DNA of 63,976 nt, filler included, from Folioceros fuciformis (lineage: Eukaryota): NCBI GenBank assembly GCA_049999805.1. It is 23 parts of 23 records of this genome, joined end to end, with 100 filler letters (N's around TTAATTAATTAA, not from the genome) between each part and the next. Parts side by side here need not be neighbours in the genome. Positions count along the whole stretch, not along the records: positions 12,001 to 15,214 come from JBNGIO010006912.1; 22 more parts are not named here. The stretch is one strand, 5' to 3'. The notes beneath the pieces were generated by a model. It was not told the DNA's origin, ran no database searches, and saw nothing but the letters and a program-made list of their open reading frames with translations. The position numbers were made by a program, and so were the translations under genes. How positions within the stretch are numbered: position 1 is the stretch's first letter; every line of letters starts with the position of its first letter. Positions 737-49,704 of this stretch are shown piece after piece.

Positions 737-3700
737 CGGCAGGTGTGAGAAGAGCAGTGATGGCTAGTCTAAGGCGCAGACTCCAGCCAGCGCGAGCTGA
801 TGTGTAGCCTCTGTGAGGCGAGGCTGGTGCTTGTGAAGTACGTAGATGTAGTGTAACATGGTGGCGTAGTGGGTATGGACTCCCGAGTGGTGCCTCAGCC
901 CGCGAGGTTAGAGACGGGAGGTGAGCAGTGGGTAGATTGGTGGGGCGATTGCAAGCCAAGCGATTCAACGATTGTTTTGATGATATGATGTGTGTTGTTA
1001 AGACTTGTGGTGGTGCGCATTTAGAGGCCGTGATCGAATTGTGTATTGTTGGCTTTGCCCCGCGGTGTTGATTTCCAAAGTTCCGTGGTGAGACATGCAC
1101 GTGGTGGTTGTCATCGTTTTGGTTTACGTTCCTGTGCCGAGAACGGGTCGTCGGTTGTATTGGTTTTGGTCTGGCCGACTGTGTGTGAAATGCGGAGAGG
1201 CAGCGTGAGACAGATAGAGGAGATGTGGGGGTGGGGAAGGGATTGGTAGCGGAGAATGAGCGCTCACACACGGCATACGTAGCATAGGTGTGTGAGTGGG
1301 AGACAGGCCGGCATGCCATCCCACGATGTGTGGAGGAGGTGGAGGTTTGGTTTTGTATGTAGGTGGTAAATGGGAGCTCTGCAATGCCACGGACACGGAC
1401 ACGGCCACGGCCACGGCCACGCCCATGCCCAGGCCCATGCCCGCGCCCTGGCCCTGTACATGGTAACGAGCGGCAAGCATGTGATATGACAATTGCAGTT
1501 GGAATCGGGAGGTTGTTGGGCTCCCCTGTTGTGGGAACGTGACTAGAGAGCGTACTCACAGTGTAGAGTGTGGAGCTTTTAGGCTGGAGGCTAGCGTGGT
1601 GAGGTGTGGAGCACGAGGTGGTGGTAGTAGTAGTAGCAGCAGCAGTGGGAGAGGTGCTTGTGGGCAGCAGGGCATGGCAGGGGAGGGGAGAGCAGGGCAT
1701 CGCGGGGCAGGGGCAGCAGGGGCAGGACAGAAGATGCGTGGCTGATTTTTGAAATGGTGGGGTTCCTGGTTTAGCTCCTGATGTCGCGGGGCGTGGTGCT
1801 GCGGCTCGTAGGGCACGAGCTGCGTGCTGGTGCTGGTTGACTGGATAGCCAAACCGCTACTGCAACTGCAACTTCAAACAAAATGTTGTGTACCATATCA
1901 TATCCTATCCAGGCGGGCGCGTCGGCTGTGGAAGCCCGACTGCCATGCCATGCCAAGTTGCTTCTGGCAGTGGAGTGGAGTGAGAGTGAGAGAGCNNNNN
2001 NNNNNNNNNNNNNNNNNNNNNNNNNNNNNNNNNNNNNNNTTAATTAATTAANNNNNNNNNNNNNNNNNNNNNNNNNNNNNNNNNNNNNNNNNNNNAGCTC
2101 TCCGGCGCCAGCTCGGTCGGACGCCACCGAGCCCACCCTCCCGGGGGCCGGGCCCTCTCGGCGTTGTGACGTCGCATTCCTGGAATTTGCATGGCGATCG
2201 ATGCCTGGGCCGGGCCCCGGGTCTTGCCTCGGCCCTGCAGGTCTGCACTGCACACATGGTGGCATCTCGTTATTTACTGAGCCGGTTGCGCCACGCGCGT
2301 CGCGCACTGCAGGTGGATGAAGAGAGGAAAAACAGCACGATGTCCGGGGTCCGTCTGGTCGCCGACTGGGACTGAGGACGAGGCACGACCGGGACGCGGT
2401 CGCCCACTCGCTGGATACATACATACAATATCTGACTGGACTGGACTGGACTGGAGGTTAGGGCAAGAGCCAGGAGAGGCGCAATGTTCTGTTTGTCTCA
2501 TGCTGCTGCACTAGGACACGGTAGTGGCAGTGGCTGTGACTGTGGCTGTGGCAGTGGCTGGCTCTCATGAAAGTCATCCGGCTACATGGCGTCACTCACC
2601 GCCACGACGTTGTGTGTCATGACACACACCCATAGAAAGAAAGACGGAGAGAGAAAGTGAGCGAGGAGCCGGGGCCATCTGGTGAAAAGGAGGCTTGGCC
2701 CCAGCACCTCACTCTCTCTCGCTCCTTCCCTCTCTCCACACTCCATGACTTTAGTAGACTCGAGAACGCGCCACACTCCAGTCCAGTCCAGTCCAGTCCA
2801 GTCCAGTCCGGTGACCAGCCCCAACCAACGAGACTCTGCAAGCTGCAAGAAGAAAGAGCAAGAGAACGACAAGGAGGCAAACAACAACATGGAAATTCAG
2901 GACCCTTTTCGGGCTGGGCCAAGCGAAGCCTGGCCTTGTTGCCCTTGCTTGCCTTGCCTGGCCTCGCTCGCTCGCTCCTAACTCTGGTCAGAGTGAAGAC
3001 TGATGTCATGTTTCCCACACTTGCTCACGCTGTACCTGTCTTGGTGGGCTGGTTTTGTGGGCTCCGAATATACCCAGTCGTCCCACCTCCTATTACAAGC
3101 CAACAACGCACCGGCGGTCGCTCTTGGTACATGTGTGTACAAGCCAATGCCCTGCATACGGCTGCATAGTCCATAACCTACCAATTCCCTTGTACATAGC
3201 CAGCCAGCCAGCCAGCCAGCCAGCCCAGCCCAGCCAAACAAGGAGAGAAACAAAAACAGGAGCTCTCATCACGTCTCGTCTCGTCCCGTGTGCTGGCAGA
3301 TGCAGTGCAGCTGCAGCTGCTCGTACTGGATATACATACATATGTACCAATACTCATGTCCCACAATCAAGTTGTATAAGGAGCTGGGACAAGTATGTAC
3401 TGTCCTACCCCTAGTGTAAAGCACAAAACTGTACATAGCCATTATAATACATAAAGGAGGGTTGGAGGAGCGGGGATGGGATGGATGGTCTACCGGCAGT
3501 ACGGACGGTCGGTTTTCGATTGTTCCGTGCCCCCTGCCGTGTGGACGTCCCCTTCTCCGTCCCACCTGCCTTTTTCTGACATGCCGACAATAGTGGTGGT
3601 ATGCCACCCTATGGTTGGTTTCTAGGGCCAAAGGGGCAGGAAAGAAGCCAAGGGAAGGGGAGGGAATGGAATGGAAGGCAGGCAGGCAGGCAAACACAAC

Positions 3701-5920
3701 CAACCCCACTTCCTGCCGCTGGATGCCAAGGGTTTGTCAAGTTTTAACCCGTGCGGCGCCGCAACAAAAGGTGGTGAGACAGCCAAACGCTCGCACACTC
3801 CTAATAACCATCTACGTCAAAGACTTGAGAGAGAGAGAGAGAACAAGAGAAAGAGAGAAAAGGAGGAGTAATAAAAAGGGTCTTATTTCATCAACAGGTC
3901 CAGTCCACAGCAGTACCTGCCTTTCCCACATGATGGTCCGATGCCACGAGCCTAGGGGCCCCGCCCATAACGTGTGTCGTTGTAACGGGACGGGATTCGC
4001 CATGGACGGTGTCAGAATCCATGCTTATCCGATGGCCCCGCCCCAGGCCCAGGCACAGGCCCGGGCCCCTGCTGTAGCGAATGTCATTTCATGTCCTGAC
4101 GGTTACGCCTCCTGACAGGGCATTGTCCGAGACGGGATACAAGAGACTGGGAGACGGAGAAGGAAGACCGACATGGCAGGCAGTCCCCGTTCACACTTAC
4201 ACACGGAACGGAACCTGATTTGCGAGCCCCGCCTGCCCGCGCTTCCTTCAACTTGGCAGTGCCACGCCACACTCTGCCCCAAATATGACAAAGCGCTTTT
4301 ATGGACAGAATCAGGCTGGCGAGGCCAAGGCTCGAGCGCGCGGCAGTCGGGATGCGTGCAGAGGCGCTCAGACCTCATCATTGTCTCTGCAAAACGTGGA
4401 GAAAGATGCACCGCGGCCAGGCTAGGGCAGGACTGGCCCTGGCCTGCCCCGCTGCTTCCTCAATGCTCAATGCTCAATGCTGCTGCCTTGCGTCTCCCCG
4501 AAGCACTCTTTCACGCCATGTTCCTGCATCATGACCGCTCCCTCCTGCTGTTGCCAGAGAGCCAGTAGCACAGCGGGCCACTGTCTCACTCGCTGGCTGC
4601 CTGGCCGCGGCAGCAGCAGCGGCAGCGGCAGCGGCTCTCAAATCCATGCAACAAAACAAAATGCAAGTGCAGTCCAAACTCCTCGGCGGCATCATCCTAG
4701 TGATACAGTGCTGCAACGGCACTCGTCCTTTCTCCCTCATCCGGGCCCCTCTCCTCTCCTCTCCTCGCCTGCTCCTGCTCCTGCTCCTGCTCCTGCACTG
4801 CATCATACGTACTGGAGTAAAATAATGACAGAACCGCGCAGGCACAGGCCAAGGTGCAGGACACTGCCATCCATGTCTCTCCTTCGCCATTGAGCTGCAT
4901 ACCATTCCAAATCAATTTGTACTGCACAAATCGCAGCTCAGCTCCCGTCCACTGGCTTCTGGCCATGGATACATACCCTGCACTGCACGACACAGATCGT
5001 ATCATATCAATTGCACCTCTGCCAATTGCAACGTCTTCGTCCCGCTTGGAATAGAGGATCGACGGAAGCACGCAGGCGCAGGCCAACCGGCTTTTCTGGC
5101 ACCACCTAGTCATGTGCCACATGTGGGACAGGCAAAAGGGAAAAGAAAACAAGAGCGGGCCAGGAGCGAGGAGAGCCAGGGAGGGCTGCTCACAGACAGC
5201 AACCGACATGCCGCGTTTTCTCTTTCTCTTGCAGTATCCGGCGGACCGCACACCACGAAGAAGCGCTAGCGCAACAAGGCACCGCACCTCACCTCCATCC
5301 TTCCCACCTCATCAAGTCCGCTAGGACAAGGAATCCCCTCAAACCAACGATGCCACCGGGTGCATGCGCCTCGGGAACGCAACGGAGGCAACAACGGGCG
5401 CGGCAACGGCAACGGCAATGCCAACGGAAACGGAAAACACAAAGACACAAGCAACCGCAATACGTGTACTGTTACTAGAGAGAGAGCGCCAGGGGGGAGG
5501 ACGGACCTGGGGAGGGAAGCTTCTGGACTAGACTGGATAAAAACCGTCATGGCAGGTAAGAAAGTGCATGGTCAGGGCCAGACAGCTATAAGGACAAGGA
5601 GCAAGAACATCATCGTCGTCACCATGCGCATGTCTGGAAGGGGGGAGAGAGAGAGGGCATCTTGCTTTACCTCATCTCTCTCAGCACACTTTCATCAGCG
5701 CAAACAGCGACTCCCACTTGACAACAACACACCCTGCTCATCAGATGGCACACACGGACATGCCAGATTTCAAAAACAGTATGTACATTTACATACATGG
5801 AATTCATTCGTACAGGATACACAGTACTAGTGTATGTGTCCAACCAACTTCAGCCTTCTCTTCCCCAATGACAATGGGTACAGGCTCTGTATAGCACTTC
5901 CACTTGCAGCGAGCCAGCAG

Positions 5921-11150: not shown

Positions 11151-11519
11151 ATGTTTAGCTCTGGAGTAGATGCATTCAAAGTGTTTTGAAGCAAGATTGA
11201 GGAGACCAAACGAAAGGAGAAGGGGAAGACATCGGAAGAATCAGCCTTTGTGACCAAGAAGGTTGGCGACGGATCAGCCAACCTTGTGAAACAAACCGAG
11301 GCCTCTTCATTCACGGGGAGAAATCGTGTTCATAAATTGAATTGCGTGTATTACCACATATTCACACAATTGCCAAAAGCAAAGTATATAATTTTAGAAC
11401 CTGATATGTCTTATATACAATATATCAAGAGTCACGACTGTTCATTAATCTCTCATAATCCTAACTAGCTAACATAAGCTACGTTTATATGTATGTAACC
11501 CTAACGAGGGGTTTTACTT

Positions 11520-11900
11520 CAAACAAATCGTAGATCTAATCTCACTTGCAATTATTGTGGCAAGGTTGGACATTTTGCAAGGAATTGCTTCAAGAGAGAT
11601 CGAGATGAGAAGGCAAAGAGTCAAGGAAACTTCGTGGAAAAGTATGAGGAAGCTTTTGTGTGCACACATCATCCCTCCAAGCAAGTCGAAGAATGGTACA
11701 TTGATTCGGGAGCTATGGAGCACATGACCAATAGGCATGAGTGGTTCCAATCTTTCAAGTCCATTCCTGCTACCAAGATCTATTTGGGTGATAATTCAAT
11801 CCAAATATGTGAGGGGGAAGGTGTTGTGGCAATGGATATGACCACACCTAACGGAGTAGTGCGTGGGATGTTGAAAAGGGTGCTATACGTACCAGGCTTG
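11520..11900 (+). mobile_element. Ty1/copia gag zinc knuckle and aspartic protease fragment
   Basis: CNYCGKVGHFARNC (CCHC), WYIDSGAMEHMT protease active site, LKRVLYVPGL. Confidence 0.9.
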
Positions 11901-12680
11901 NNNNNNNNNNNNNNNNNNNNNNNNNNNNNNNNNNNNNNNNNNNNTTAATTAATTAANNNNNNNNNNNNNNNNNNNNNNNNNNNNNNNNNNNNNNNNNNNN
12001 CCCCAAATCATTCACCCCAGAGCCAGCCCTGCTCCTGCCTCTGCAGACCCCAGCTGCCGCTCCCTCCCCGCTCCAACTTCTGCATCTTGCAGCCGCAAAA
12101 CACATGAAAGGTACAGTACATACTTCAAAGGTCAGGTACAAAGCCAGCGCCGACGACACAACCTGCCTCTCAAAAGACGAGATCCAGATCTGGCGCTTGT
12201 GGCTCGCCATCATTGACAATACGGATTGAATCCATCAAGGATGAGTCAGTCTTCCTCCCTAACAACAGGGCCCTAGGCTAGCCCCAAAAACCAAGGGGCA
12301 GTACTTAAGGATCCTCACATATCGTCACACAACAACCAATGTGGATTCATCTTCGTCCACTTCACGAAGAGCCGGTACCGAGGGCTGGAGGCCCTTCCAC
12401 TCATTCCGTTGCGCTCTGCAACTCGAGTGGTCAGACAAAACTCATTCCCTCACCTGCTCATACACCCTACGGCAACGACACTTGCCACCGCAACAGATGC
12501 AATCCATACTTCCTACTACTCCTGCAATGGGCTAAGTGCCGTAGGAGGGGCAGCACACCATCTCTTATTCCTTGCCCCACTGGTGCCAGCACCCACACCT
12601 CCTCTACAACAAGCCAAGGGACACTTCTGGAAACAAATGGTTGACCAGGCTCTGCCTCCTGCTCCATAGCTAACTCCAGA

Positions 12681-14984
12681 TCAATCCAGCAAAGCCGACA
12701 ATAATTTGCGGGAATTGCTGGCAGGGGGAGTGAAACCCGGAAGCGACCGAATGTTTTTGTTATTTGGATTTACAATCTGAAAACCAAACCATCAAACCAT
12801 ATCAGCATCACCGAACAATGAGCTCGCACCCGACACAGACAAGGCTAATGCAGTCAACAGAAACCTTCACCAAACGGCAAGGCACGAGGGTACCTTGACA
12901 ACAATTATGGCGATTACTCCAGCGACGATCAGCAAAAGAAACAGCATAATACACTTGTCGGTAGCCAGCTGCACAAAGGCCACAACAGTTGCAACGAAAT
13001 GAGCACAACCACCGTCATCTACAGCCAATTCTCCATGCACCACAACAAATTCCCCCTGGTTTGCCTCATGCTCGCAACTTTGAGATTTCTCTGCCGAGAA
13101 GGGGGATATGACAGCATACATACCTGCCTACCGATTTCCTTCACAAGTTGTGAAGCTTTCTTTAAGGAGAAGGAAATAGTGTCAAGCTCATTCACAATCC
13201 TTCCCATTTGCTCCGTCTGTCAAGCAACGCAGTGAATTAGATGGGGCTAAAACTCTGTGCAAGCAATTCGGAATCCACGCAGCTAATAGACCAGCAATGA
13301 GAATGGATCAGGCCATCTCAAGGAGACTTCACATCAGACGCCTGGTAAACGGTAAATACCTGAGACTTAAGTGTCGAGGCTGTCTGCGCACCCACGTTGA
13401 TAGTGTCCTCCACAACCTGAAAAAAAAGTAGCCCACGCCTCAGACGACATTTTCCTACGCGTGCAGACCGTGCACTGAATTTGAAACAGCTTTCAACTTG
13501 CTCACTTTCTTAGCCCGGTCAATTGCTTGGTCAGTCTCATCCATTTGCTTTCTCCCACCATCAATTAACTCCTGATTCGACATTGCTACAAATTCAACAC
13601 GATCTATAAGCAAGCCACCTTTCCATAATCCTCGTGCAAACTGTGTCAAAGGCGAGTTCTATTTACGTCATAAACAACCAAAAGGACGAGCAGACCAACT
13701 TACTTGAAGCCATTCGAACATTAGGGTCAACCAAAGGTTCACCGCTCGTTCCTCCCTCCAACAACTGGTCCTTTTTGTTTCCCAGTGTACTAGTATACCT
13801 GCAACCAAACCCGATGAGATCACGAGAAACTCTGGGATACAATTTCATCATCCCATAATCAGGCACATAAACGTTGAGACGGCCACCACCAAATGTCACG
13901 AACCCTATGCTACAGTCGCAAATGACTCAATACTCGGTGACCAAAGCCCGACATTAGTTCACACTATAAAACGAAGCCGCAACAAAGTTCTCCAGACCTT
14001 ACAGGCGGGAAGCAATCGACCTTGCCCAAGGAGACTCTGCTAGACACATACAAGGTCTCACTAGTCTTGCAGAACCTACGGACAATCCGAGATTGTTCAT
14101 TAGGAGAAGGTAACCACCGTGGACTCGGATCAACTGTGTGTAGCCAATGTATATGGTGGAAAGTCAGATGACACTAACCATCATCTTCTAACAGGCCTTA
14201 ATATGGGCCCTATGCGGCAGAAACGTCCACCAGGGATAAGGAGACCACTGCTATGACTCAGACAGGGCCGTCCAAGACTGCAGACACAGGAACCAAATGT
14301 CGCTAACACATATGGTGGGAAGTCATCTGTCACTAACCATCATCTTCTAGCCAGCTTTCATCTAGGCCCTACGCGGCAGATAGTTCACCATAGATAGGGT
14401 GACCACTGCTAGACTCAGATAGGGCCCCCAGAGATTCGGAATTAACACGACCAGTGAAAGAAAAGTCACGGCAGAAGGGAGAACAGTACGTTTTCCTCAG
14501 GGCAACAAATGAGTTGAGCTCTTTAATCTGTACAGGCAACCAAGAACGTACTATAAATAGATCGCCATAGATTCATGTTGCAGAAAATTCAAGAACGAGA
14601 AAGGGACAGAGACGGTTCAAAGCAGACTTGACAAAAAAAAGTGGGAGACCATCCAGAGTACTCACGAGCGATTGCTTCTTCTCATTAAGTTGCTTGTTCA
14701 TCTCAGGAGGATTTTTAGAATCCTCTTCCTTGATCTCCCTATCGAATTCCTTGATGAGCCTGAGTACAACAATCCAGCACCAACAGCGTTGGCGGTAAGA
14801 AAGCAGCTGAAAATTCTAAGGCCTGAGAGTAAAGAGGCCTTCACAGGACGAGATTCGACGATCCGACATGCCAGATGTCAAGACGGCATACCTTTTGCAT
14901 TCACGCATTTTTGCCGTGAGCTCTTCGAGCTGCTTACTCTGTCTCTTTTCATCTTTGATCTTGTCCAATTTTTGGAAACCAGTC
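12681..14984 (-). CDS. NPSN: novel plant SNARE (NPSN11/12/13-like Qb-SNARE), multi-exon, first exon missing
   Basis: QSKQLEELTAKMRECKR, IKELNSFVALRKT, MSNQELIDGGRKQMDETDQAI, EQMGRIVNELDTISFSLKKASQLVKEIGRQVATDKCIM plus TM; stop at 12681. Confidence 0.95.
14136..14269 (-). ncRNA. candidate intronic box H/ACA snoRNA, copy A
   Basis: Hairpin GGCCCTGT...ATAGGGCC, H box ATATTA (14204-14199), second hairpin, ACA+3 nt; 134 nt; sense to host intron 14489-13799. Confidence 0.7.
14295..14426 (-). ncRNA. candidate intronic box H/ACA snoRNA, copy B (paralog of A)
   Basis: Hairpin GGCCCTAT...GTAGGGCC, H box AGATGA (14363-14358), hairpin GCTGGC...GTTAGC, ACATTT; 132 nt. Confidence 0.75.
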
Positions 14985-15314
14985 CTGGGCAAACGTCACA
15001 GAAAAGGGGTAAACCCTAGGGAACCACACAATTCCGGACGAAAAAAACTGACGCAGTCCATTCCATTCCATAACGGAAAGCGCTCACACATCCACCATGG
15101 AAACTTCGATCAGAAACTCCTTATAAAGGTTTGAGAGAAAACTAGCAGCTGAGACTTAAGCTAGACAGCCTCATATAATCAACTGCATTCTAGAACAGTA
15201 TGCAGCAAAAGACANNNNNNNNNNNNNNNNNNNNNNNNNNNNNNNNNNNNNNNNNNNNTTAATTAATTAANNNNNNNNNNNNNNNNNNNNNNNNNNNNNN
15301 NNNNNNNNNNNNNN

Positions 15315-20091: not shown

Positions 20092-20110
20092 TCATACTGT
20101 ACTTACCTCA

Positions 20111-20306
20111 AAAGCCCTAATTCTACCTGCTGAAAGTGGCTCGTCAATAATTCAGGAACCGGCCGTAAACAGAGACAAATTGTCTGTACATATTATACGT
20201 TGTTTTTTTCCATTTTGTTTTTCTAAAATGAATAAGACACATACTGACCGTATGTATTACAGAGATATGTGACCGTACGTATCCTTGGCCAGCTGGTAGG
20301 GCCCAC
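20111..20306. promoter_or_regulatory. ribosomal-protein-type promoter motifs: telo-box-like AAGCCCTAA and site II GGGCCCA
   Basis: AAAGCCCTAA at 20111 and GGGCCCA near 20300, upstream of RPL40. Confidence 0.4.
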
Positions 20307-40597: not shown

Positions 40598-42809
40598 TCA
40601 CCGTCTCATGAGGCGGGCTTGGATGGCCTTGAACTGTGCGTGGGACTGGGCGAGGCATTCCACGCTCTTGCGCACGCTGGTGCACATGCTTTCCAAGGGG
40701 AGGACGGAAAAGGGTTCTTCGATGAGCACTCCCACCTACACGACAAAGTACAGCACCGAGTTGGGTTGCGTACAGTACTGGGAACGGAAGGCAATGGAAG
40801 GAAAAGGAAGGGGAGGGAAGCGTGATTCACTGTGTCAATGACACATCTGGTTTATGGCAGCATAATGTAATACAGCTTGTAAAGTGACGAGAAGGAGAGG
40901 GGTGAGGGATGCCACCTCGTCGATGAAGAACAGGGCCGTGGAGCTGAGGAAGGTGGCGGGCACAACTGTCCATCCGCACTGATCCCACAGTGCCAGTGGG
41001 AGTACCACATGCCAAAACACCAAGAAGAGGGATGTCAACCTTGTGTAGGATACAGGGACAGGTGTACGAAAAATGCGCTCGCATGCCCCCAAGTTGTCAT
41101 GCAATTGTGTTACGTTGCCATCCTACAAGGACGGGGTGGTAGCTATGTAAGTGGGTGGTTAGGAGGCAGATGACAGACTGCGACCTGCAACAGATACTGT
41201 CCATTCTATCCAAATCCGACGCAACTAGTGTACTGTTAAACTGGTGCGAAAGGCAAACATGTGAGGGAGGGGAAGAGGAGGATGTTGTGCAGGGAGTGGG
41301 AGTTGGGGGGTTCGTACCCCTCCCTGCAGCTACCTGCACTCATGAACAACTGACCATTAAAGCTAACTTCATGTCGCTTAATTGGCAGCTTTGGATGAGT
41401 CCTGATACCATCTGCAGCACATGGTTTGGCCGGTGAGGGGATGCCAGCAACGAGGCCAACTCATCCTCGTCCAGCAGGTTCAGGAGCTCTTCCTCCAGCT
41501 TATCCCCTGGCAGCAGCTGGTGTTTCAGGCACACGGGGAACGCCACCTGCGGGCCATTCACAGGAGGTTGAGGGTTACGTAAGAGGCGTACGTGTGATAT
41601 TCCAGGGCTGGTACTCGGAGAAGAGAAGGCAGCAGTATAATTCTCATCATCACAAAGCTTGTTTATTTGCTTGCTTGCTCGCTGAGATGTGAGATGATGC
41701 GTTATACTGCAGCCCTGGAATCACAGGCTGCCCTTCCTTGTCAGACACTGTGGACTTTATGACATTGGGGGGAGGAGAAGGTGACCAGGTCTGACAATGT
41801 AATCCAGGAGGCGCTGAAGAGAGTCCTGGCGTTCCGCGTCGTTGATCCAAGACAGAGCCTGCCTCGCCAGATCTCTGCTCCTGTTGACATTGGAGCCCCA
41901 GGCTTTCCTTGCCTCATCAAACCTGCCGTAGCACGCGTTGGTCCGGAACACCAGCAGCAGCGCCAGCGCCGGGGCTGTGAACTGGAAGGGAAGGGCGGAG
42001 ATGTGCAGAACCGGGATCCAGGCGGGAACCACTGACACTGCGCAATTGAAGGCAGCCACCGCTGCGGCAATCAGTGTCAGGGCCAGCACCGGAGCTCTGA
42101 GAGAGAGCAACACCCTGGAGGAGGAGGCGCAGAAGAGGTAGCGGACATGGCGGCTGCTGCTCCTGTGCCTGCTCCACTCATCGTGATCGTAAACTGTCTG
42201 CAACGACGACTGCATCATGCGCTCTGCAACCGTCTTCTTCCTCCCGAACCCTTGCTTCTGTTCTGGAGGAACGATTGCAGCCCCGGCAGCGGGAACGTCC
42301 TTGTCCCAGAATGCATCCGACCCACATTCTTGCTCTGAATGCGGCTCCGACGAAACCGCACACCGATATTTCTTGGGCTTCGATCCCTTGCCGAGCTCTT
42401 GCGGGAAGGCCCGTTGCCACTCCTGGCTGGACTTGAAGAGGCCGGGGGCGTCCTCCAACTGCCGCTGGGGCCTCATCGGCCGGGTGTGGAATAATGGCGT
42501 TCCCAGTGCCATGTCCTCTGCAGTTCAATCCCACACAAGAACCGTGTTACCACCCACCGCAATGTACATCGTCGCCGTCGCAATTGAGACCGGAATCTCA
42601 CCATCGATGGCTTTCCCGGGCCGCCACGAGGCACTCAACCGCCGGGTCTTTCTCCTGAGAATGGGAATCACTGGCCACACCACAGGATCGTCTTTTCGTG
42701 GCAGTGTCATGGTCTCGGGACTCGGTGTCTCCCGCTCTGGAATGGCACCGGGATGCACAGCAGCCCTAATTCTCGGGGTTAGCATTCGACCACGACCAGA
42801 AGCTTCTTC
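40598..42809 (-). CDS. bestrophin-like (UPF0187; BST/VCCN) anion channel, multi-exon; true start may lie further upstream
   Basis: LALLLVFRTNACYGRFDEARKAWG, PHRPN, GACERIFRTPVPVSYTRLT, IDEVGVLIEEPF; in-frame upstream exon via intron about 42601-42518. Confidence 0.92.
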
Positions 42810-43540: not shown

Positions 43541-44440
43541 CTAGCTGGAATCGCAATTCCACTTAGATGTGGGCACGCAGGACAGGTAATGACACCACTT
43601 GCAGCCCTTGTTCGGATTCACGCCCTTGAATAAAAGAACAATAGCTGCAGCATACCCGGCCACGAGAAGCACGGCGGCCAAAATCCACAGAGCGTACTGG
43701 TACCTCTTGTGCTTGGGCTTCACAGGCTCTCCGGGCGCAGCGTCGCGCTTGTGCACCCACCCGAACTGAGGCCGGACAAGCAACACGAAGCCGAGCAGAA
43801 ATCCGGACAGGAAACCTCCGAGATGCGCGAAATTGTCCACACGAGGCATTAGCCCGAACGCAAGGTTGACGAGGATGACGAAGAGCAGGGCGCAGAGAGC
43901 GGTGCAGCGGCGCGTATAGATAGACCAATTCACCAACAGCTCCGCAAGCGTAGCCCCCAGCAGACCGAACAAAGCACCCGACGCTCCCACCGAGATCAAT
44001 GTCCGACTGAAGAGCGCCGACAGCAGACTGCCTCCGAAGCCGGACAAGAGGTAGATCAACCCTATCCTGACGAAACCAAACTCCTGCTCCAGCCGGAGCC
44101 CGATGAACAACAAGCCGAGCATATTAGCCAGCAAGTGGAACAGCCCCGCGTGCAACCACATGCAAGTGATGAGCCGCCATCCCCGATGCCGATAAACCAC
44201 CAACTGCGTGTCCAGCGCTCCAAGGCTGAGCAGTGTGTCCGAAGACGGCCCTAAAAGAGGATTCTCCCGCCACGGCTGGAAAGCCAACCTCTTCAACCAT
44301 CTGGCGATGCATCCATTAGCCGAGTTCACCGGGCAATCGTTCTTGTACATGGTGACCATAAACATAACAACGTTGGCCAGCACAAGCACCGGAACCAGCC
44401 ACGTCCGCCAGTACTCCGTCGCCTTCTTGCTGGCAGCCAT
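43541..44440 (-). CDS. RBL: rhomboid-like intramembrane serine protease (RBL1-7 type), intronless, 299 aa
   Basis: ENPLLGPS, GWRLITCMWLHAG..HL..N, catalytic GASG and DNFAHLGG, C-terminal C.WCHYLSCVPT..W.C. Confidence 0.96.
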   Translation of the reverse strand: MAASKKATEYWRTWLVPVLVLANVVMFMVTMYKNDCPVNSANGCIARWLKRLAFQPWRENPLLGPSSDTLLSLGALDTQLVVYRHRGWRLITCMWLHAGLFHLLANMLGLLFIGLRLEQEFGFVRIGLIYLLSGFGGSLLSALFSRTLISVGASGALFGLLGATLAELLVNWSIYTRRCTALCALLFVILVNLAFGLMPRVDNFAHLGGFLSGFLLGFVLLVRPQFGWVHKRDAAPGEPVKPKHKRYQYALWILAAVLLVAGYAAAIVLLFKGVNPNKGCKWCHYLSCVPTSKWNCDSS

Positions 44441-45013
44441 GGTCTCCGCCGACCCCTGCGGCGGAGGAGACAGCGGGTAAACACCGTTCCCCTTCCCTCT
44501 CTTCTTCNNNNNNNNNNNNNNNNNNNNNNNNNNNNNNNNNNNNNNNNNNNNTTAATTAATTAANNNNNNNNNNNNNNNNNNNNNNNNNNNNNNNNNNNNN
44601 NNNNNNNATGTATACCACATAGCACACAGGGTTTGTCCACGACTGGGTTCAAATTGGACTGTAAATTGCGCTACCCGGCTATTTATGTACATCCTCAACA
44701 ACGGAATGTTTTGGCTGGCCTGATACATGGACTTCGCGATTGGAAGTGGCAGTCAGCTGGCAGCTTGCTCGATGGAGCGTGAAAGCTGCGCACACTGGTG
44801 GCCGGATGGGCAGAGGCAGTCTACTGCAGCGGCAGCGGCCGCTGTACATCTCTTCTCCGTTACATGCAACAGAATGCTGCATGAGGGGAGTGAATATGGC
44901 CATCTCCGGCTCCCGGCCGCGGCTGGCTACATATGACAAGGTGGGAGGCAGGAGCAGCATTGACAAAAGGACTGCGGGAAAGAGAGCCTCGGAAGGTGTC
45001 GGAGTCCATCAAC

Positions 45014-46974: not shown

Positions 46975-47806
46975 CTAGATCCCCGACCCTACCTCTATAT
47001 CTCCCCTAGTGGGAGTGGGAGAGATCCAACTGCCAGCCCCGTCAGTCCTGTTGTTTTCATCCATTGTTCTCAAGGGAGCCAAAGTAGCGCGATATATAAA
47101 CGCAGTACCACCTGGCAACACACAAACGGTGTGTCACACTTGGCACCATCCGCCACGAAAAACCCAAGTGTAGCAGCACCCAGTCAAAAGAACGCTGAAA
47201 CAGGGGGACTCACAATCTATGGAGGTTACGGGAGGAAAATGTTGATGATACACGATAGTTGCAACCGATAGACCTGCACATTCCGCATGACCAATCAGAA
47301 GTTGTCCATAGTTTTTCTCCAGTGCCTCAAGATAAACCTACGTGGCAGCCCTTACCAAGCAGTCCTCCCACCAGCACGTCTTGCCAATGGTGCCAATAGT
47401 CAGCCACTCGAGAAGCCGCAACCAACGAGGCCATTAACAGCGGGAGCAAAACAATCGGCAACTTGAAGGTGTGGCCCTGCTTGTCATAAACAGCTAACTT
47501 TCCTGCCAAGTACCAGGACAGATAGCCAAGGCCTGCGAACGACCCTGAAAGCAGAACACGAACTATCAGCTGCAGACGTTATTGCTTCTCAAACAGAACA
47601 CTCATATCATACTCGGAGCATGCACGATAGCTGAGCTTGCACCTTCAATCTAACCCCATCACCATTCCCTAAGCTTGAAAAACTGTGGTACACCAGTTGA
47701 ACACATGATCAGAGGCATGCAATCAGCACACAAAACTTCACCCTCAGGACCTAAGAAAAACTTACAAGAGGTATGGCCGCTTGGAAAGCTTTTGTAGCCT
47801 TCTTTG
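46975..47806 (-). CDS. LPP: lipid phosphate phosphatase (PAP2/LPP), 3' exons
   Basis: [44 protein letters not shown]; stop at 46975. Confidence 0.93.
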
Positions 47807-48779: not shown

Positions 48780-49704
48780 ATGTAGTGATGATATCCTTTT
48801 TGTCAATATACTATATCTAACTTGACATCTACTTTCACGATCCCCTAACACCCATAATAGCATCACCATGTACATGTCATTTAATCACATTGTACTCATA
48901 GAGCTTAATAGTCAGCACATTATAACTAAGCTAAATATATGTGCATGCACTTTATCACTTTTGCCTAGTAAGATACCCCTAAGCTTGACTTCTAATGTGC
49001 TTAAGTATAGTACTAGTTTCAGCTTATGGGTCCCTCCTACTTTTGCCAACATATCATTTATATGTAGAGTAAGGCATAGCTCATTGTATAGACAATTTCT
49101 ATCTCTAAATGTTTGGTTTGTAGTGAATCACAATAGTAATAAGTCTATGATCTCAAGGGCACAACGTCTAGCAAGTAGTCTAGATTTATGGCATGCTATT
49201 GTGTCATTCATCTTAAGCTTAGTCTTAAAGATCCATTAATTAGTTAGCTTACTACCAATTAGTAGATCAAAAAGCTCCCAAGTATTATGATGTCTCACCA
49301 AGTAAGACAGATCTTCGAGGGCATGTCCTAGAGATTATAGTGATCGATCATAAATTATCTCCATTGTTACAATCACTTGTATTCAAGAGATCAACATCTT
49401 TAACAACATTGTCTTCTTCACCTTATTCAAAAGTAAAAATGTTCAACTTCTCAATCTCTGTTTGAGTACAAGGCTCTATATCTCATGCTAGACATTGATG
49501 AAATAACACATGCTATTCAATATCCAAGTCTAGAAAGCTCAATTGAGGATGAGGCTAAGGTTACATTGGCAAAGTAGTATTGATCTCATACCTTATTCAC
49601 AAAAGAGTCATTCTTGGGTGATGCAAATTTTGTGAAGCAAACATTTCTAAACAAGGATTCTTAGAAGTAAGAAGACATGCAATTTTGTATGCCTTAGATT
49701 CTTC
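48780..49704 (-). mobile_element. highly decayed copia-like reverse transcriptase relic
   Basis: KLKMNDTIACHKSRLLARR resembles K..DG.I.RYKARLVARG; downstream VDVK; many stops; AT-rich. Confidence 0.45.

Follow-up and report, generated by a model that had tools for sequence, protein, structure and literature searches.

A candidate array of orphan box H/ACA snoRNA genes in an oversized intron of a novel plant SNARE gene

What occupies a 691-nt intron in a gene whose other introns are about 86–138 nt long? The question is raised by a fragment of a novel plant SNARE (NPSN) gene of Folioceros fuciformis (GenBank assembly GCA_049999805.1), found in a stretch of 63,976 nucleotides that was analysed as a whole and is referred to below as the window. 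The window consists of about 23 short contigs chained by identical spacers (44 N, 12 letters and 44 N; e.g., 11901-12000 and 15215-15314), and neighbourhood across the joints is not to be assumed; the intron lies within one contig (12001-15214), whose minus strand carries part of the NPSN gene. Two tandem, diverged units with the architecture of small nucleolar RNAs (snoRNAs) of the box H/ACA type, designated A and B, and a third, more diverged unit C were located in the intron on the host sense strand. We consider it probable that the intron is a small array of genuine, currently orphan box H/ACA snoRNA genes, one member of which is decaying. The observations that carry this reading are the anatomy of the units, their paralogy, compensatory changes in their stems, conservation in three other organisms, turnover of copy number, and the occurrence of cDNA-type contigs that still carry the unspliced intron. 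The array accounts for the intron being five to eight times as long as its neighbours.

The NPSN intron and its repeated units

Exon boundaries were set by alignment of Logan contigs from four public runs (X1, X4, X7, and X19) to positions 13400-14900. Spliced contigs were present in X1, X4, and X7, and these runs therefore hold cDNA, the kinds of runs being otherwise guesses. In two of these three runs, X1 and X7, the spliced contigs leave out precisely 691 nt (joint 13795>14487, cut +3), and the ends of the intron on the minus strand are GT at 14489-14488 and AG at 13800-13799. The joints of X1 delimit neighbouring introns of 118 nt (13586-13703) and 138 nt (14528-14665), while two more introns of the gene, of about 130 and 86 nt, were recognised from the sequence read together with loose contig ends. 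The host was identified through a 59-aa read-through open reading frame (ORF) containing a 30-aa exon, which matched proteins named 'novel plant SNARE 11/12/13' and Pfam PF12352/PF03908; the E-values of these matches were about 1e-9 to 1e-6, with a single outlier of 3.9e-18. A first-pass annotation of the sequence had described an oversized intron at 14489-13799 in an NPSN gene of the SNARE type, and both statements were confirmed. The features of the locus are as follows, beginning with the host.

13799..14489, minus strand: NPSN host intron, 691 nt, GT..AG (sequence; spliced contigs in X1 and X7)
14490..14527, minus strand: upstream exon, 38 nt, IKELNSFVALRK (X1 contig pieces, joints, translation)
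13704..13798, minus strand: downstream exon, 95 nt (X1 contig pieces, joints, translation)
14295..14426, minus strand: unit A, predicted to encode an H/ACA snoRNA of about 132 nt (minimum free energy fold, orthologous contigs)
14358..14363, minus strand: H box of unit A, AGAUGA (ANANNA)
14298..14300, minus strand: ACA box of unit A, 1 nt past hairpin 2
14136..14269, minus strand: unit B, predicted to encode an H/ACA snoRNA of about 134 nt (alignment to unit A, folds)
14199..14204, minus strand: H box of unit B, AUAUUA
14139..14141, minus strand: ACA box of unit B, the first among three overlapping ACA triplets in ACACACA
13891..14057, minus strand: unit C, diverged third unit (two short repeat families, alignment, folds, box scan)

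Read along the host sense strand, units A and B each contain, in order, a basal stem P1 of 8 bp, an internal loop, an upper stem with an apical loop, the ANANNA hinge box, a second basal stem P3 of 6 bp, an internal loop, another upper stem with an apical loop, one unpaired base, and ACA. Both thus have two hairpins, a hinge, and a tail, with the H box lying in the hinge. The hairpins span 14426-14365 and 14355-14302 in unit A, the 3' end of which was assumed to lie 3 nt past ACA, and 14269-14206 and about 14196-14143 in unit B; by the predicted ends, the two units are separated by a spacer of 25 nt (14294-14270). At least two units on the host sense strand, with a short spacer, therefore share one intron confirmed by spliced contigs. 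The minimum free energy (MFE) fold of unit A holds both hairpins at -45.8 kcal/mol (z -2.36), an energy equalled by 3 of 200 shuffles, and hairpin 1 of unit B is also present in the MFE fold of that unit. The opposite, plus strand of the units folds no better than shuffles (z -1.24 and 0.33).

The paralogy of the units was detected as direct repeats, one pair of 83 nt at 80% and another of 29 nt at 83%, with a spacing of 158–159 nt; 107 of 137 columns are identical in the MAFFT alignment of 14426-14292 with 14269-14133. The segments CTGAGTC, TCTGCCGC, and the 19-mer TAGAAGATGATGGTTAGTG are unchanged between the two units, and differences are found in the apical loops, hinge, basal stems, and tail. 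Written as RNA, the invariant stretches are CUGAGUC and UCUGCCGC, which form the loop strands of hairpin 1, and the 19-mer UAGAAGAUGAUGGUUAGUG and CCACCAUAU, the 19-nt and 9-nt stretches of hairpin 2. Differences in the H box are confined to N positions 2 and 5, and the three conserved A positions are intact.

Divergence of the basal stems preserved their pairing. The changes between units A and B include wobble-compatible ones (A-U/G-U, U-G/U-A), and over units A, B, and C all 24 cells of P1 are paired; both partners differ in two pairs (G-C>A-U and C-G>U-A), and two other pairs changed by wobble. In P3, 11 of 12 cells are paired, and two pairs are changed on both sides. When the 3' partners are slid by one to three columns, pairing falls from 93–97% to 32–49%. 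The sense orientation, the architecture, the compensatory stem changes, and the restriction of H-box changes to N positions fit box H/ACA snoRNAs. The first-pass annotation had proposed two diverged sense-strand copies of the form hairpin-ANANNA-hairpin-ACA, a divergence that keeps pairing, and invariant internal-loop segments combined with differing apical loops; the located boxes, the repeat alignment, and the stem counts given above bear out all three.

Conservation, turnover and transcription of the array

Orthologous introns were compared using one run for each of three other coded organisms (X4, organism B; X7, organism C; X19, organism D); in total, 17 runs share a small part of the intron words. 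The unit-bearing pieces compare with the window as follows.

X19, organism D: piece 14297-14426, 9 differences in 130 letters
X4, organism B: piece 14297-14456, 13 differences in 160 letters
X7, organism C: piece 14264-14516, 22 differences in 253 letters

The units in the orthologous intron of these organisms are thus about 91–93% identical to those in the window, similar to the exons: exon pieces in the same contigs differ by 4–8 of 82 and 7 of 93 letters. Among the substitutions listed, all three in unit A (14327, 14329, and 14392) fall in apical loops. In organisms B and D, the H box of unit B is AUAUCA (14200 A>G). Outside units A and B, unalignable sequence takes the place of three intron stretches in the relatives. 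The contigs of X4 and X19 join over 14078-14137/14141 with 94–97 other letters, while X7 is alignable through most of that stretch, and the contigs of X4, X7, and X19 join over 13853/13856/13861-13980/13991/14001 with 197–209 other letters. Exon-like identity is therefore retained in units A and B and in the 5' hairpin of unit C, while flanking and intervening sequence has been replaced.

Two minor elements lie outside the units. An 8-bp hairpin (AUCCGAGU...AUCUCGGAU) is present on the minus strand at 14085-14131, between units B and C; it is probably functionless, since organisms B and D have 94–97 other letters in its place. The intron's 3' end (13799-13875, minus strand) is kept in the three related organisms (pieces 13769-13853/13856/13861) and carries GGGAUGAUGA, which resembles a C box. 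A box C/D snoRNA in the intron tail was considered and rejected: no D box was found by reading before the 3' splice site, and the only Rfam matches at E<=10 were those of archaeal C/D models to the GGGAUGAUGA stretch at 13808-13875, with chance-level E-values of 1.7–6.6.

The replaced stretches include the 3' half of unit C. The 5' hairpin of this unit (14057-13995) is clearly homologous to hairpin 1 of units A and B, its 3' hairpin is longer than theirs, its ACA is located at 13896-13894, and it terminates in ...GUGACAUUU, as unit A does. A box scan found no ANANNA in its hinge. In organisms B, C, and D, only the region of the 5' hairpin (from about 13980/13991/14001 to 14078) can be aligned. 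Unit C, possibly degenerate, has lost its H box and is probably decaying, and the position of its 3' half within a replaced stretch fits such decay.

The number of units also differs between organisms. A single contig of 1186 nt runs from exon to exon in organism C, with joints going back 157 and 74 nt; we read it as holding four units of the A/B type and, after them, the hairpin of unit C. For organism D, the DNA run contains a unitig equal to unit A, whose depth is 24.5 against 8.39 for single-copy flanks, i.e., about threefold, corresponding to about three collapsed copies. Copy number therefore varies, with two units here and four in one relative, and the depth fits a small local tandem array and not a dispersed high-copy element.

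Tandem arrangement and variable copy number would also be expected of a mobile or satellite-like repeat, such as a miniature inverted-repeat transposable element (MITE), a short interspersed nuclear element (SINE), or a tandem repeat, that folds by chance into an H/ACA-like shape, particularly as a loose H/ACA descriptor is satisfied by chance about six times per window. This explanation appears hardly credible given the distribution of the unit. An 18-mer shared by units A and B occurs in the window only in these two copies, with no other in the remaining approximately 60 kb, and in none of 100 shuffles. A covariance model built from the two units recovered, in the window, only the units themselves and one weak match, unit C not being found. 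The weak match (44366-44466, minus strand, 21.7 bits) has a GC content of 0.66 and falls within a long rhomboid-like ORF (43541-44551), and the inner part of hairpin 1 is missing from it; it was taken as chance. Matches of the shared 18-mer in metagenomes were likewise dismissed, since all six of six loci had nothing in common beyond the motif. The search of 13500-14800 gave no inverted-repeat pairs, the unitig depth in the DNA run is only about three times that of the flanks, and the array occupies the same intron position in four organisms. The first-pass annotation had named a lack of conservation in related species and a dispersed MITE or SINE as findings that would speak against its H/ACA snoRNA interpretation; exon-like identity in three organisms and a local, low-copy distribution were found instead, which supports that interpretation.

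Intron-bearing contigs were found alongside spliced ones in all three cDNA runs.

X1: one intron-bearing contig of 748 nt (13769-14516) at depth 16.2; exon and junction contigs at 69–137
X4: intron-bearing contigs at depth 3.6–5.9; exon and junction contigs at 34–99
X7: intron-bearing contigs at depth 10.3; exon and junction contigs at 151–181

In X1, the two neighbouring introns were seen as spliced joints only. Such a pattern would be given by a stable intron-derived RNA or by slow splicing of a structured intron. An alternative view is that the hairpins are cis-acting structured elements of the pre-mRNA, e.g., regulators of splicing or intron retention of NPSN, and not independent stable RNAs. 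Unspliced contigs at about 6–17% of exon depth in three organisms would agree with this, as would the conservation of the intron 3' end (13799-13856). A cis-acting element, however, has no need of ANANNA and ACA at the canonical places in each copy, a range of two to four copies between relatives is not expected of it, and here the whole architecture of the unit is repeated as a module. We therefore regard this alternative as quite improbable.

If the units are snoRNA genes, the NPSN intron would act as a small polycistronic host for the two intact tandem paralogues and unit C. By analogy with established intronic and polycistronic snoRNAs of plants, the units would be transcribed together with the host pre-mRNA. 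Each hairpin-H-hairpin-ACA unit would be bound by dyskerin (Cbf5/NAP57), Nop10, Nhp2, and later Gar1, and endonucleolytic cleavage and/or exonucleolytic trimming of the intron after its excision would eliminate the spacers, leaving stable processed RNAs of about 130–135 nt assembled into small nucleolar ribonucleoproteins (snoRNPs). The conserved internal-loop sequences could then act as guide or recognition elements.

Weighing the H/ACA reading and the search for targets

Several results weigh against the assignment of the units to functional H/ACA snoRNAs. The first concerns chance. A loose descriptor (two hairpins based on 6 bp, ANANNA and ACA, both strands) matched the real window 7 times, and 40 block-shuffled windows 6.3 times on average; boxes and stems by themselves are thus not above chance, and the case therefore rests on duplication, compensatory changes, and conservation. 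The compensatory changes have their own limit: with two to three sequences, the covariation counts are not significant relative to shuffles (reached in 49 of 500 and 112 of 500), and statistical covariation is not claimed. The folding of unit B is weak as well. Its whole fold is at the level of shuffles (z 0.04; equalled by 102 of 200), and the fold with the canonical hairpin 2 has -33.0 kcal/mol against -37.9 for the MFE fold, being 4.9 kcal/mol costlier because of one U.U pair in basal stem P3. In organism C, changes listed at 14204-14205 abolish the ANANNA of the copy aligned there. The intron-bearing contigs may represent a mere retained intron, and contigs cannot reveal discrete ends, strand, or level of a 130-nt RNA. 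Comparison with Rfam yielded no match at gathering scores in the whole window and none at E<=10 on 14125-14435 (311 nt). Finally, scans with free pocket boundaries revealed no site reproducibly above shuffles in the ribosomal RNAs (rRNAs) scanned, and in the best-supported MFE folds of unit A the pocket top lies 12 nt from the H box in hairpin 1 and 11 nt from ACA in hairpin 2. In active H/ACA guides, the target lies 14–16 nt from the H or ACA box.

The first-pass annotation had proposed the Rfam comparison, which was run with the outcome just given: no family match, either at gathering scores or at E<=10. The absence from Rfam is unsurprising because the genome appears, from protein comparison, to be that of a non-seed land plant without a close relative among the named entries of the protein database used. 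The named proteins most similar to a 487-aa formin FH2 exon from another part of the window are those of a liverwort, a fern, and a moss, with an identity of about 70–72% at most. The possibility of small RNAs specific to Cajal bodies (scaRNAs) was also considered. The CAB box of scaRNAs is ugAG in the apical loops. The apical loops CUAUCUAU and GACAGAUG of unit A and UUAUCCCU and GUCAUCUG of unit B all lack UGAG, and this identity was rejected.

Some of the adverse points could mean that the units are relics, i.e., a tandem family in decay, composed of what were once snoRNA genes, or pseudogenes of H/ACA-like type, that no longer form functional snoRNPs. Unit C without an H box and with a 3' half not kept in relatives, unit B with a U.U pair in the basal stem and a suboptimal 3' hairpin, the lack of a target in the rRNA scans, and the short distances from pocket to box are all in line with this, and gene fragments and mutated copies are described in plant snoRNA clusters by Kim et al. 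2010 (PMC2875012). Decay of the whole family is, however, at odds with the exon-like identity of units A and B in three organisms where adjacent intron sequence has been replaced, with H-box changes between the two units that spare the three conserved A positions, and with the invariance of the internal-loop strands between paralogues. The relic explanation appears unlikely to us, and the reading of A and B as genuine snoRNA genes, with decay limited to one member, is preferred.

For these genes, targets were sought in plant 18S, 5.8S, and 25S rRNA, in the large and small subunit (LSU and SSU) rRNAs of another eukaryote, its LSU being complete, and in a fungal LSU rRNA, all obtained from eukaryotic ribosomal DNA (rDNA) contaminating bacterial assemblies. 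A two-arm H/ACA pairing rule was applied and compared with shuffled controls, with pocket boundaries either free or fixed by the MFE folds. With free geometry, most of the best scores lay in the range of the shuffles, and the two lowest counts were obtained for 25S sites in the plant locus L064, reached by 1 of 30 and 2 of 30 shuffles. Neither was retained: when the site of the first was scored in the other plant locus, L065, 10 of 30 shuffles equalled it, and for the second the counts were 12 of 40 in L029 (unit A) and 16 of 40 (unit B), with a mismatch in L033.

With the pocket fixed by the MFE fold, the best match was between hairpin 2 (loop strands UAGAAG and AUGU) and plant 18S AUGU-UA-CUUUUAG. 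This match to 18S U1058 (L033 numbering) comprises 4+7 bp, including three G.U pairs; its score was equalled in 16 of 500 shuffles with unit A and in 35 of 500 with unit B. It is kept only as a lead because the pocket lies 11 nt from ACA. The main texts of Sun et al. 2019 (PMC6793436) and Streit and Schleiff 2021 (PMC8351944) mention only sites other than the equivalent of U1058. Three further, recurring leads were rejected. In plant 25S CAG-UC-GACUCAGA (3+8 bp), the guide arm does not adjoin the upper stem; the 25S expansion-segment site GCGCGGCGG-UC-GCUGC (9+5 bp) varies between plants; and 18S U1055, a recurring lead, was not accepted.

The first-pass annotation had interpreted the internal-loop segments as those of pseudouridylation guides. 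The invariance of the strands stands, but the claim is overstated in view of the distances of 11–12 nt from pocket to box and the lack of a target above shuffles. Units A and B are currently best described as orphan H/ACA RNAs. Since the 19-nt and 9-nt strands of the 3' hairpin are invariant, the pocket lies 11 nt from ACA, and no rRNA match exceeds the background, there is room for a non-modifying role. Units A and B could accordingly form a lineage-specific orphan H/ACA family that does not guide rRNA pseudouridylation and serves, e.g., in chaperoning of pre-rRNA near 18S position 1058, or acts on mRNA or small nuclear RNA, its copy number (two to four among close relatives) being tuned by tandem duplication; we view this more specific proposal as doubtful and advance it only tentatively.

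Some observations made in the course of these searches concern other parts of the data. The loose descriptor also matched 47050-47202, 49547-49677, 41033-41192, 20098-20244, and 3289-3433; these matches are probably due to chance, their count being equal to the shuffle expectation. The eukaryotic rDNA contigs found in bacterial isolate assemblies and metagenome-assembled genomes (L033, L029, L019/L064, L042, L047, and L003) are contaminants in public records; those in L033, L029, and L042 are of plant type, and L047, labelled Bryobacteraceae, contains a eukaryotic rDNA repeat whose LSU is interrupted by a group I intron (4418-4760). On the plus strand of a neighbouring contig, an ORF at 11505-11900 with a CCHC zinc knuckle and gag-pol-like sequence was read by eye as a fragment of a Copia-type retrotransposon.

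Comparison with known snoRNA systems

Intronic snoRNA clusters occur in Chlamydomonas and rice. For Arabidopsis, the table of Kim et al. 2010 (PMC2875012) lists several intronic clusters of H/ACA isoforms (snoR79a-c, snoR90a/b, snoR87-2a/b, snoR100a-c, and snoR110-2a/b). Among them, snoR79a-c is located within an intron of the histidine-synthesis gene At1g31860, and the gene of a plastid development protein, At2g33430, carries snoR90a/b in its intron 3; snoR110 is an orphan. The same text states that plant snoRNA genes are mostly found in polycistronic clusters and that clusters of maize and Arabidopsis are processed from polycistronic precursors. As far as these descriptions go, the array resembles the Arabidopsis clusters in having two to three tandem isoforms of one H/ACA snoRNA on the sense strand of a single intron; the Arabidopsis isoforms are 138–199 nt long, their hosts include non-ribosomal genes, and some, such as snoR110, are orphans. 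The differences are the lack of similarity to any Rfam family, the NPSN SNARE host, and the non-seed land plant in which the array is found, the RNAs here being predicted. The first-pass annotation proposed a possibly undescribed intronic guide-RNA cluster in a trafficking gene and noted that plant hosts are usually ribosome-related; the arrangement is not unusual, as Arabidopsis has intronic H/ACA isoform clusters in non-ribosomal hosts (Kim et al. 2010, PMC2875012), and the understanding of snoRNA genes is for the same reason unchanged. A literature search for snoRNA together with NPSN gave only what is, by its title, an unrelated maize small-RNA study.

The snR30/U17 RNA carries two conserved signature motifs in the internal loop of its 3' hairpin. 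It is a non-modifying H/ACA snoRNA needed for 18S processing, and the conserved strands of this loop are its functional elements. The units described here are similar to it in that their longest invariant stretches are found in the 3' hairpin and the pocket is unusually near ACA; units A and B are, however, much shorter than yeast snR30. An identity with snR30/U17 was rejected: by reading, both signature motifs are absent, only a 5-letter part of one being present, and Rfam gave no H/ACA match. In Arabidopsis, snR30/U17 (SNORA73) is reported as not yet identified by Streit and Schleiff 2021 (PMC8351944).

If confirmed, the units would represent an uncatalogued H/ACA snoRNA family in a lineage of non-seed land plants, for which snoRNA inventories are sparse, and would provide a clean, small case of birth-and-death evolution of an intronic snoRNA array, with two copies here, four in a relative, and one member decaying.

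The rule in vertebrates and yeast is one snoRNA per intron. The array shares with the intronic snoRNAs of these organisms the location in an intron, the sense orientation and, by prediction, expression coupled to the host, but differs in having two to four units per intron. It is closer to the polycistronic and intronic clusters of plants, with several snoRNAs per precursor, short spacers, and evolution by tandem duplication and decay, its processing being predicted; unlike many plant clusters, in which C/D and H/ACA snoRNAs are mixed, it consists of homogeneous paralogues of one H/ACA RNA.

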